A program made the position numbers and the translations under genes. A DNA stretch of 64,000 nt, taken from a virus. The DNA is taken from the UHGV virus genome UHGV-0042229; one strand, given 5' to 3'. Positions within the stretch are counted from its first letter, which is position 1, and each line of letters begins with the position of its first letter. This document shows, in pieces, positions 57,224-60,266 of this stretch. The notes beneath the pieces are model-generated. The model saw nothing but the letters and a program-made list of their open reading frames with translations. It had not been told where the DNA came from and did not search any database.

Positions 57224-57234
57224 ATTAGAGCAAT
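57218..57234 (-). promoter_or_regulatory. C1 operator (perfect match), overlapping partner
   Basis: AAATTTATTAGAGCAAT; overlaps the previous site by 6 bp in inverted orientation, at the head of the tRNA-ban operon. Confidence 0.75.
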
Positions 57235-60200
57235 ATACCCAAAACGTCATGAGCTACACCTCGAGTGTCCCCCTTACAAGACACAGAACGTCTGGCAAAA
57301 AGAGGTTCCACTCTGAAGCCACTGTCATGATAAAGCTCTCTGATGTTTGGCGCGCCACTGTTAGTAATGAGAACCTTTGCACCTCGACGATGAGCATCCG
57401 TCAACAGAGACACCAGGCGTTTTTGCTCTTCAAACTTAAAGTCATGACCGGAATAGTTCGTGAATCCCTCTGTATTTGGAAGCGGTTCATACGGCGGATC
57501 GCAAAAGATGACATCTCCTTCTCCGGCAGCTTCAATCACCGCTGCAAAATCACCGCATACAAACTCAGACCGCCCTTCCGCACCGAGGAAGGCTTCCATC
57601 TCCTGTAATGGGAAATACGGAGTTTTATACTTCCCATAACCGACATTGAACTCACCGGCCTGGTTGTAGCGCGTCAATCCGTTAAAACAATGTCGGTTCA
57701 GGAACAAAAACGCCGCTGCGCGATGTAAATCATCATAGACTTGTTTGTTAAACGCATTCCGTACTGCCAAGTATCCCTCCTGGGTGTTGTAGTCCAGGAA
57801 AAAACGATGTGCCAGAGTGATAAGTGAATGCTCCTCGCGTTGCAGAGTCTTGTAAAAGTTAATCAGGTCAGCATTCACATCATTTAGCAGATTTTCCTGG
57901 TATCCGGCATTCATGAAGACAGCTCCGCCACCGACGAAAGGTTCAATCAGGCGCTTCCCTTCTGGCAAATAGCGAAAGATTTGTTCCAGAACACCAAATT
58001 TTCCACCGGCCCATTTGAATATGGACCGTTCGAATTCTGCCGCTGGTTTAACTTTTCGCTCTTTTGTTTCACTTCCTTCTTTCTGCCGACATACGGCCTT
58101 AGTAATCCGATCGCCAATCCAGCGCATTACTGGTATTGCCATACTATTGCCGATCGCTTTGTAACGCGGTCCGTCAGCTGCAAGCATTGCGGCCTCTTCT
58201 TCGCTTAAATCTGGATAGTGATTGTGCAGATATGCCAGTTCATCTGAATTAACTTTTTTACGCTTTTCCGTAGGGATCAACGTATGCCAATCAGGAAAAC
58301 CTTGCAGCCTTTCACATTCGACAGGGGTAAGACGGCGCATTCTACCGTCGCCGAGCAATACAATTGGTGCTTCATGGTTACATGTCAAAGTTGGTGCCGA
58401 ATTATCGGTTTTTATCTCAGCCCCTCCTTGCCCATGTGCCATGGCAATTATGTTTGTATCATCGCAAGTTCTGATAGCGATGTTTGAAGTATATCTGGTA
58501 GTTTCCTTCCCCTCGCCTCTGCTCGGCGCAATATTCCGGCGCACGCCTTCGAACTCAAAAAGTACCGTTGCGGGATCGAGGTCTGTTCGAGCACTTGCGA
58601 CAACAAACACGCGTCGGCGTCGTTGTGCCACTCCGAAGTATTGGGCATCAAGGATTCTCCAGGCCACTTTTCGCTGCGGTCCATAAATACAACCACACTG
58701 CGGCCACTTTGGAGCATGGCAACCGGTTTTGACATCCCACCGCCAGAATGCGTTACTTTTTCCTGATTCAGGTCGATCACCTGGTTCGAATGGCGCATCT
58801 TCTCCAGCCAATCCGGCAAGGAAACATCCGAAGGCGTTATCTGCCGATGACAAGACTCCTGGGACATTTTCCCAGACGATAACGGCTGGTTTGAGAAATG
58901 ACTCAGCCCGTTTGTCGTCAATTGCATTTGCAAGCTCCACATACTTTAAAGTTAGCGCGCCACGCTCATCATCAAGCCCACCACGTAATCCAGCGATACT
59001 GAATGCCTGACAGTTATGGACCACCGCACCATTGAGGATATAGGAATGATCACCTTCGACTTCTATGTTGTATACAGTATCTAGGCCTACCGATTTAAAC
59101 TCTTTGACTGTTCGTAAAAGCATTCCATGAGCCAATCTTGATTTACGTGACAATTTCTGCGGGCAGATTGTTACCTGATAATAATTCCGTTGATTTACCA
59201 CGCGATCCTCAATCACTTTTTTGGGCTTAACTTCAATAAAGCTGACCGAAGAAACATAACCACAAGTCTGTGACAACTCCGCAACGCCCCAAGCAAGCGC
59301 AGGACTAACACTATTAATTCTAAATCCCGCTTTACCACTTGGTGTCCCATCAGTATCAAGATAGCCTTGTAAAAACACATGACGCAATGGATGCGACATA
59401 ACCCATGCAGGGATACGCTTAGCATGGCTTAACTCGCCAAAATGTTCATTAAGCCAATTGGCATAACACGTATCATTCAAGGTTACTTTGATGCTCCCTC
59501 GGATTTCGCTTGCCACGGAAAATATGTTTTCTGGTATGCGGCAATGAAACTTTCTCAATTTCTGGCAATTTATGCCAAAAACAACCGCCTTCTTAGATTT
59601 ACCTCTCCATCTCCTAATATATCCATCGCCAACATAAGCGCCCGCAAGATACATAGCCTGTTCTTCAGACAAGAACCGAGAACAAATATCTGGAGATGCA
59701 ATATTGAAATTAGTTAGAGCACACCATTGATATCCCGGCATATCACATGCTGCTCGCCATTCCGGTTCAGACAACAACTCTCTCTTAAAATATGTGCCAT
59801 TTTTCCGGGTGTTTTGGGCTTTCCACCGAACCGCCAGGAAGGGATGGTCATTGGTTGTTCTTATACCTAAAGGCTGCCCAACGGCATTAAGTAACCCCGT
59901 ATTAGCTATTTTTGAACCAACTCTTTTTACTTGTTGTAACCGCCCGAGATGACTGACTACGTAATCGCCAGGGCAAACATCTTCTATTGGTTTATAACCA
60001 TTTTTACAAAGAACCATATGCCCCGCGGTAAAACATGGTGTCCCTCCCACCAGCACATCAGGGGCTTCAATTTCTCCAGCCTGGACTTTTTGGGCGAGTT
60101 TTGTCATGTCGCCAAGGTTGGCGACATGGGGCCAGTGGTACGCAAGAACGGCAGATGGAAAAGGCTCGATTTCAGCAAACCACGCCGGACGCATACCCAA

Positions 60201-60266
60201 CGGTTCCCAGGCAATACTCGCGGCTTCAATTCCACTGCAAACAGATCCATAGCACAGCTCTTTCAC
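57225..60266 (-). CDS. dmt: Dmt-like bifunctional DNA methyltransferase (C5-cytosine domain with intein, plus Dam-like N6-adenine domain)
   Basis: N-terminal C5-MTase motifs [13 protein letters not shown]...[25 protein letters not shown]; C-terminal Dam-like [19 protein letters not shown]. Confidence 0.85.
59013..60035 (-). mobile_element. 341-aa intein with LAGLIDADG homing endonuclease inside dmt
   Basis: Insert begins CFTAGHMVL, ends GAVVHN followed by +1 Cys; [11 protein letters not shown] and [11 protein letters not shown] motifs; block B TTNDHPF; splits GGTP|CQAFSIAG. Confidence 0.8.

Follow-up and report, generated by a model that had tools for sequence, protein, structure and literature searches.

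A predicted class-1 intein with a LAGLIDADG homing endonuclease at the catalytic cysteine of Dmt, the fused methyltransferase of P1-like phages

The virus genome stretch UHGV-0042229 (64,000 nucleotides, hereafter the window) carries on its minus strand a single open reading frame (ORF) at 57225..60266, which starts with GTG, ends in the stop codon at 57225-57227 and encodes 1013 residues (113 kDa). The original prediction, whose coordinates for the ORF proved exact, read its product as a C5-cytosine methyltransferase with a complete motif set, fused to a Dam-like adenine methyltransferase, and the Pfam search that it called for detects both folds (DNA_methylase, PF00145, 1.5e-29; MethyltransfD12, PF02086, 4.6e-56). 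Judged by its sequence, the window is a P1-like phage (Punavirus), region 57000-61600 being 97-98.5% identical to P1, P7, RCS47 and related records. The ORF is the P1-family dmt gene, in which the C5-cytosine methyltransferase forms the N-terminal and the Dam-type methyltransferase the C-terminal part of the fusion; the product is 98% identical to the Dmt of OP279344 and 91% identical to that of reference P1 (AF234172/NC_005856) over the parts in common. Since the identity of dmt and its operon match the annotation of AF234172, this much is already known, textbook P1 biology. The reference P1 Dmt is, however, 754 residues long, and the original prediction overlooked that the window ORF exceeds it by 259 residues. 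What are the additional residues, and what do they do to the enzyme? The fusion, the operon and the operators being known, what is added here is an unannotated, apparently mobile intein that sits on the catalytic cysteine of the C5 domain.

Alignment of the window Dmt with those of OP279344, reference P1 and RCS47 resolves two discrete differences. One is a block of 341 residues that reference P1 Dmt does not have; the other is a variable region of the C5 domain that is 82 residues shorter in the window, and the two together account for the length difference (341 - 82 = 259). The block lies in frame between GGTP and CQAFSIAG (P77 and C419), in a conserved site that reads contiguously GGTP-CQAFS in the intein-less counterparts (reference P1, P7 and 48 sampled alleles). 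Methylase motif IV is accordingly split into GGTP/C(FTAGH...) and (...VVHN)/CQAFS, where the slash marks the junction. The N-extein (Dmt residues 1-77; 60036..60266, minus strand, as are all parts of the gene given below) extends from C5 motif I, CSGIEAAS (60216-60239), through GGTP. The intein itself (C78-N418; 59013..60035; 1023 bp, 38.3 kDa) has a GC content of 0.43, against 0.49-0.55 in the exteins, and the C5-methyltransferase part of the C-extein (58032..59012) comprises CQAFS, ENV (58863-58871) and QRRRR (58611-58625).

All the residues typical of a class-1 intein are present: Cys1 (C78, in CFTAGH), the TxxH of block B, a C-terminal His-Asn and a +1 Cys. Block B reads TTNDH (59844..59858), with T61 and H64 of the intein corresponding to T138 and H141 of Dmt, and the C-terminal VVHN together with the +1 Cys codon (59010-59012) occupies 59010..59024, yielding H417-N418/C419. 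The +1 Cys, C419, thus holds both the position of the splice nucleophile and that of the catalytic cysteine of methylase motif IV. Two LAGLIDADG motifs lie between block B and the C-terminus, LAGAYVGDG (59619..59648; catalytic Asp D214 of Dmt, D137 of the intein) and LQGYLDTDG (59343..59372; catalytic Asp D306, intein D229). Profile searches agree with this anatomy. The block scores 36.9 bits with Pfam LAGLIDADG_3 (gathering threshold 22.5) and 30.7 bits with NCBIfam intein_Cterm, TIGR01443 (cut-off 15.6); it is barely at threshold with Pfam Hint_2 (28.5 bits, threshold 28.4) and matches Pfam Intein_splicing below threshold. Partial NCBIfam matches are to models of proteins that often contain inteins (ribonucleotide reductase, the intein-containing GyrA and RtcB, RFC and DnaB). 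The 341-residue block is almost certainly a class-1 intein with a double-motif LAGLIDADG homing endonuclease.

Conservation and predicted fold point in the same direction. In an alignment of the intein with twelve relatives at 24-53% identity, C1, T61, H64, G132, G138, K206, G230 and N341 are invariant, while conservation of D137, D229 and the +1 Cys is 90% or higher across relatives down to 24-30% identity. The AlphaFold2 model computed on this alignment has a predicted local distance difference test score (pLDDT) of 92.7 and a predicted template-modelling score (pTM) of 0.89. Compared by Foldseek with solved structures, the model gives as top matches the full-length, endonuclease-bearing inteins PI-SceI (E value 6e-17), TliVMA (template-modelling score, TM, of 0.63), PI-PfuI and PI-PkoII, these four spanning E values from 6e-17 to 6e-9 and TM from 0.55 to 0.63. 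Prp8 inteins (HINT fold) are also matched, and the free-standing LAGLIDADG enzymes I-SceI, I-OnuI and I-AniI rank next. The model thus predicts both a HINT fold and the fold of a LAGLIDADG endonuclease domain.

What does the insertion do to the methyltransferase? The claim of a complete C5 motif set holds for the remaining motifs that had been quoted, and DPPY is present as well, but the string PCQ is found nowhere in the precursor ORF. It is created when the intein is removed in silico, which leaves a Dmt of 672 residues (75 kDa) with a contiguous GGTP-CQAFS that aligns with GFPCQAFSISG of M.HhaI (motif IV, catalytic Cys). C5 motifs I, IV (PCQ), VI (ENV), VIII (QRR), IX and X occur in order, motif IV being contiguous only after in-silico splicing. 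By the same operation, the Pfam DNA_methylase match, in four fragments at 104 bits, becomes one continuous stretch covering motifs I-VI at 124.8 bits, and the NCBIfam dcm score (TIGR00675) rises from 95.1 bits, below the cut-off of 100.65, to 115.1 bits, above it. The name in RefSeq is only 'Dam family site-specific DNA-(adenine-N6)-methyltransferase', probably because the intein pushes the dcm score below the cut-off. From the sequence I infer that the unspliced precursor is incapable of C5 methylation, so that C5 activity should depend on protein splicing. The Dam domain, 330 residues downstream and uninterrupted, may work without it.

That a class-1 intein occupies the motif IV Cys of P1-like dmt and splices itself out is, taken as a whole, very probable. 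Splicing and DNA cleavage, as well as their timing, are deduced from the anatomy, the predicted fold, the conservation of catalytic residues and the population pattern described below. Self-splicing of the 113-kDa precursor would start with an N-S acyl shift at C78, continue by trans-thioesterification to C419 and be completed by cyclisation of N418 and an S-N shift, the products being the 672-residue (75-kDa) Dmt with its active site restored and the endonuclease as a separate 38-kDa protein. In a cell that contains two P1-like genomes, this endonuclease would cut intein-less dmt around ...GGTACGCCT/TGTCAGGCATTC..., the putative cleavage target being the junction GTGCTCGTCGGGGGTACGCCT/TGTCAGGCATTCAGTATCGCGGGC. 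In the ensuing recombinational repair, the cut allele would acquire the intein together with a short flank (homing). That the endonuclease is active at present seems to me somewhat better than an even bet.

How widespread is the element, and does it behave like a mobile one? The intein DNA (1023 bp) is present in 133 PLSDB plasmids from Escherichia (E. fergusonii among them), Salmonella and Shigella; with 471 PLSDB plasmids that carry the Dam part of dmt, its share is about 28%. Of 5426 complete E. coli genomes, 152 (2.8%) have it, nearly always on plasmids. Among the deposited phage records compared, OP279344, RCS47 and vB_EcoM-Ro157c2YLVW carry it, and it is absent from reference P1, P7, SJ46 and JL22. 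None of the intein-bearing records examined labels it as an intein; the annotation is plain Dmt or methyltransferase. OP279344 ('P1 del res del mod') was considered as proof that laboratory P1 contains the intein and rejected: its flanks are 96.4-99% identical to reference P1, that is 1-3.5% off, so that it represents a separate lineage and is not isogenic.

Allelic variation was compared in the 77 alleles that contain all segments (73 IMG/VR loci, three phage records and the window), of which 29 have the intein and 48 do not; they were ranked by similarity to an intein-containing query, and these proportions are no estimate of frequency. All four combinations of intein and variable region occur. 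With the intein present, the variable region is short in 16 alleles and long in 12; with the intein absent, it is short in 14 and long in 32; three alleles, one with the intein and two without, have rarer forms of the region. Presence of the intein and type of variable region assort independently. A further boundary between recombination modules lies inside dmt in two IMG/VR contigs, L038 and L041, whose Dam segment is about 69% identical to that of the window, the C5 part being 96-99% identical.

Within the intein-bearing alleles, the intein has a nucleotide diversity of 0.006, the extein segments one of 0.014-0.056. At synonymous sites, compared in 27 of these alleles, the values are 0.0125 in the intein versus 0.033-0.117 in the exteins, a 3-9-fold difference, and synonymous diversity is lower in the intein for 347 of 351 allele pairs. 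Purifying selection was rejected as the source of the low diversity, since the deficit extends to synonymous sites. The codon at position -1, for Pro, is CCA in 27/27 intein-bearing alleles and CCT (once CTT) in 48/48 intein-less ones. The intein is found in at least two N-extein haplotypes that are about 8% apart. On the 3' side, the flanking haplotype of intein-bearing alleles switches to the common intein-less haplotype at varying distances downstream: within 24 nt (allele L034), at about 100 nt (L028) or at about 120 nt (L003). The reading frame is intact and without stop codon in all 29 copies of the intein, which differ by 15 synonymous and 16 non-synonymous polymorphisms (ratio of non-synonymous to synonymous polymorphism per site, pN/pS, of about 0.3), and the C5 exteins keep all their motifs, with non-synonymous diversity (piN) well below synonymous diversity (piS). 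This pattern is what one would expect of a homing element that has been spreading recently, with co-conversion tracts that vary; such agreement does not in itself prove endonuclease activity.

The insertion site is shared by related inteins elsewhere. A word-indexed protein search with the intein returned 25 relatives, mostly fragments, and a contig scan with the alignment showed a wider family. Those at 47-53% identity, in metagenome C5-methylases, prophages of Mannheimia haemolytica and phage 587AP2, split the identical GGTP/C...HN/CQAFS site. Scanning one genome per species with the intein alignment yielded 262 relatives. Among the best 52 of the 262, most lie at the equivalent position in diverse C5-methylase lineages (for instance ...GSP/C.../CQDLS, ...SPD/C.../CKHFSKAKGG and ...SPE/C.../CTNHS), and their hosts include Firmicutes, Actinobacteria, Chloroflexota, alpha-, beta- and gamma-proteobacteria, Bacteroidota, cyanobacteria and one archaeon. 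When the exteins of ten relatives were spliced in silico, all ten matched PF00145 continuously over the junction. More distant archaeal matches are in other proteins.

Several individual relatives deserve mention. In Mannheimia phage vB_MhS_587AP2 (KP137435.1/NC_028743.1), a 48%-identical intein at 27587-28606 lies beneath two annotated genes, labelled 'hypothetical protein' and 'cytosine-specific DNA methyltransferase'; in P0011 of M. haemolytica, the C-extein stops about 20 residues past the junction, by mis-annotation or because the host gene is decaying. A relative in a Ruminococcus metagenome-assembled genome (L116, 4001-5020) apparently uses another site, right after ...AVWENV (motif VI) of a C5-methylase-like protein. 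In Sphingopyxis sp. GW247-27LB (L124, 4001-5047), the GTP/ site is followed after the intein by SQGFSLAGLRGG, in which a +1 Ser replaces the catalytic Cys; unless the boundary lies elsewhere, splicing would leave this methylase without its nucleophile. Distant relatives (about 27% identity) are present in Escherichia phage A4 (ON286972.1, 292878-293915), beneath an annotated DNA cytosine methyltransferase gene, and in Escherichia virus TH47 (MT446416.1, 176068-177096), whose record is unannotated. These two are jumbo coliphages, and P1-like elements are therefore not the sole coliphages with such an element.

The alternative that survives best accepts splicing but not homing: the endonuclease would be inactive, and the patchy distribution would stem from homologous recombination, plasmid reassortment and vertical descent. 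Decayed endonucleases are common among natural inteins, P1-like dmt alleles are mosaic throughout, the variable region and the Dam part included, and a pN/pS of 0.3 reflects just moderate constraint. It is harder to reconcile this alternative with the retention of both catalytic Asp-Gly pairs and of the conserved Lys in relatives at 24-53% identity, with an intein whose synonymous diversity is 3-9-fold below that of its own flanks, and with a fixed nucleotide in the -1 codon that accompanies the intein into two or more strongly diverged N-extein haplotypes. A directed process is the simpler explanation, and I regard an inactive endonuclease as unlikely, though far from negligible.

Five points weigh against a splicing and homing intein. 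Splicing, endonuclease activity and C5 methylation by any Dmt allele are predictions from sequences and models. A sequence-only search of the PDB with the intein is marginal, the best match having an E value of 0.0015 (C-terminal block of the DnaX mini-intein) and the next 0.025; because these matches are weak, the case for an intein rests on profiles, conserved residues and fold. The alleles from IMG/VR were not drawn at random and are not independent of one another. Low intein diversity with mosaic flanks could also result from ordinary homologous recombination between P1-like plasmids, with no active endonuclease involved. Lastly, the copy on E. coli plasmid NZ_CP027223.1 (H80, 35242-36263) is 1022 instead of 1023 nt long and has two gene annotations beneath it; the 1-nt deletion suggests a frameshifted, decaying copy, and hence that some copies decay.

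A more far-reaching reading, which I consider doubtful and clearly less likely than an inactive endonuclease, makes the intein a currently active homing element among the P1-like phage-plasmids of E. coli, E. fergusonii, Salmonella and Shigella and perhaps also a post-translational gate on the catalytic Cys. On prophage induction, the Dam half could then act at once (pac methylation), with C5 methylation following only after splicing, which might itself respond to conditions such as the redox state, through the C1/C+1 pair.

Could the intein instead be dead for splicing, a piece of tolerated junk that leaves the C5 domain permanently inactive in a gene kept for its Dam domain? Such a gene is conceivable, the Dam domain being downstream and uninterrupted and the reference annotation (AF234172) giving C5 methylation by P1 Dmt only as 'perhaps'. 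Yet C1, TxxH, HN and C+1 are intact in 29/29 copies, without a stop codon, and the C5 exteins retain all motifs, with piN well below piS; nor are low diversity and an intact 1-kb frame expected of a dead insertion. These observations make a splicing-dead intein quite improbable. Still more improbable is that the block is a Hint domain of the bacterial-intein-like (BIL) kind, which would cleave itself and release the fragments, leaving the exteins unligated. The Hint_2 score, barely at threshold, and one weak PDB sequence match to a bacterial intein-like domain (E = 0.9) are what speaks for it. BIL domains are typically without a C-terminal His-Asn followed by a +1 nucleophile and without an embedded homing endonuclease, whereas the block has HN/C, a TIGR01443 match and a LAGLIDADG domain, is inserted inside a conserved active-site motif and has intein-less homologues. 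Finally, an ordinary uninterrupted fusion with complete motifs and lineage-specific extra sequence, as the original prediction had it, has next to no probability left, for although the ORF does contain the two methyltransferase folds and database records say simply Dmt or Dam-family methyltransferase, it is refuted, barring artefacts of alignment or domain assignment, by the absence of PCQ, by the alignment with reference P1, which lacks a discrete 341-residue block exactly at the catalytic Cys, and by the Hint and LAGLIDADG domains of that block with their PI-SceI-like predicted fold in the Foldseek comparison.

To which known systems does the intein-bearing dmt compare? It resembles dmt of P1 in gene, synteny, the operators Odmt and Oban, domain order, Dam domain and C5 motifs, and differs from it by the intein, by the PCQ that is contiguous in reference P1 and by the shorter variable region. 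With PI-SceI (the yeast VMA1 intein), TliVMA, PI-PfuI and PI-PkoII, it has in common a two-domain class-1 architecture with an embedded LAGLIDADG endonuclease, and with PI-SceI and the archaeal VMA/Pol inteins it shares Cys1, TxxH, HN, the +1 Cys and two LAGLIDADG motifs. Identity to PI-SceI-type inteins is only 11-17%, however, the dmt intein is smaller (341 versus 360-540 residues), and it has another host protein, another insertion site and another setting, that of a temperate phage-plasmid of enterobacteria. Inteins are hosted by N6_N4_Mtase enzymes of actinobacteriophages (Kelley et al. 2016, PMC5050341; PMC9957025), and a 2025 survey (10.1101/2025.01.02.630785) lists N-6/N-4 methylases and the C-5 methylase (IPR001525) among the phage intein host families. 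As in the actinophage methylases, the dmt intein is a LAGLIDADG intein in a phage methyltransferase gene, is distributed patchily and shows signs of having passed from one diverged allele to another, and the methylase inteins of Cluster F mycobacteriophages are detectable relatives at about 27% identity. The actinophage cases concern N6_N4_Mtase or are listed by family only, and none is in P1-like phages or Enterobacteriaceae; the catalytic Cys of C5-methyltransferases as an insertion point is not discussed in PMC5050341, PMC9957025 or 10.1101/2025.01.02.630785. The closest cultured relative outside Escherichia and Salmonella is the intein of Mannheimia phage vB_MhS_587AP2 and P0011 (47-48% identity), at the same GGTP/C...HN/CQ site. 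It differs from the dmt intein in being spread over two annotated genes, with a seemingly truncated C-extein in P0011 and no fused Dam domain. Full-text searches of open-access papers turned up no intein described in the dmt of P1-like phages, in phage-plasmids of enterobacteria or at the catalytic Cys of a C5-methyltransferase, which is not proof of absence.

The second length difference concerns the variable, putatively target-recognising region between QRRRR (motif VIII) and motif IX. The window has its short form (58332..58532, minus strand; 67 residues), and reference P1 Dmt a form of 149 residues. At least four architectures, of 67, 149, 202 and 257 residues, occur among relatives (the window, L016, L077, L078 and others), and they are assembled from common modules, for example ...STGAGFWSEGHGTLRAREQESHEHL. 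These forms look like target-recognition domains that have been swapped or stacked, as in multispecific phage C5-methylases. They would imply that cytosine targets differ among P1-like phages.

The remainder of the locus follows P1. The Dam-type (D12 class) N6-adenine methyltransferase domain (57315..58013, minus strand; residues 752-984 in PF02086, 190.8 bits, 4.6e-56) contains both FVGGGAV (FxGxG) and DPPY (57489-57500, minus strand) and scores 248.4 bits with NCBIfam dam, TIGR00571 (cut-off 114.85). It is 98% identical to the Dam part of P1 Dmt, to which the AF234172 annotation assigns GATC specificity; by analogy, the window domain would methylate GATC. The upstream neighbour, predicted to be an RdgC homologue, is indeed of that family: hrdC (60263..61168, minus strand; 301 residues) matches Pfam RdgC, PF04381, over its full length (profile positions 3-298 of 298; 327.8 bits, 8.5e-98), and its stop codon overlaps the dmt start by 4 nt. 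Farther upstream lies uhr (61161..61445, minus strand; 94 residues). The promoter Pdmt (-10 at 61488-61493, -35 at 61512-61517, minus strand) was positioned from the homologous promoter in the P1 annotation and abuts the C1 operator Odmt/Op68, an exact 17-mer ATTGCTCTAATAAATAT at 61517-61533 (minus strand). Gene order, overlapping stop and start codons and Odmt at the promoter are those of P1, and the proposal of a uhr-hrdC-dmt operon behind a C1 operator is borne out, in agreement with AF234172. The three genes would be co-transcribed from the C1-repressed Pdmt, so that dmt would be expressed on prophage derepression.

At the other end, the bivalent C1 operator Oban (Op72a/b; 57207..57234, unstranded) overlaps the dmt stop codon and is part of the downstream ban operon. 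As in P1, genes for tRNA-Thr(TGT) and tRNA-Asn(GTT) lie downstream of dmt on the minus strand (56399-56474 and 56477-56552). The spacer between dmt/Oban and the tRNA genes (56886-57054, minus strand), the 'dicF-like region' of the P1 annotation, gives no Rfam match to DicF; besides the two tRNAs, there are weak sub-threshold matches to transfer-messenger RNA (24 bits against a gathering score of 47), and the small RNA STnc100 has a sub-threshold match (39 bits against 47) at 55701-55820. The predicted pac site made of GATC hexamers is plausible: 7-8 TGATCR hexamers cluster at 32233-32414, the densest spot of the window (8 GATC per 200 nt), a sequence arrangement consistent with P1 pac. A second GATC-rich spot (6 per 200 nt) lies near 63731.

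An unrecognised intein has thus been present in a classic family of model phages, consistently annotated as plain methyltransferase. The site at the motif IV Cys, common to related inteins in many phyla, suggests a widespread and little-described insertion point. If the dmt intein is active, it would provide a natural system of intein homing, and of conditional splicing, in the genetically tractable setting of E. coli and P1, and the long-standing question of the C5 activity of Dmt would hinge on protein splicing. Work on the methylomes and anti-restriction of P1-like phage-plasmids would then have to know which dmt allele is present.

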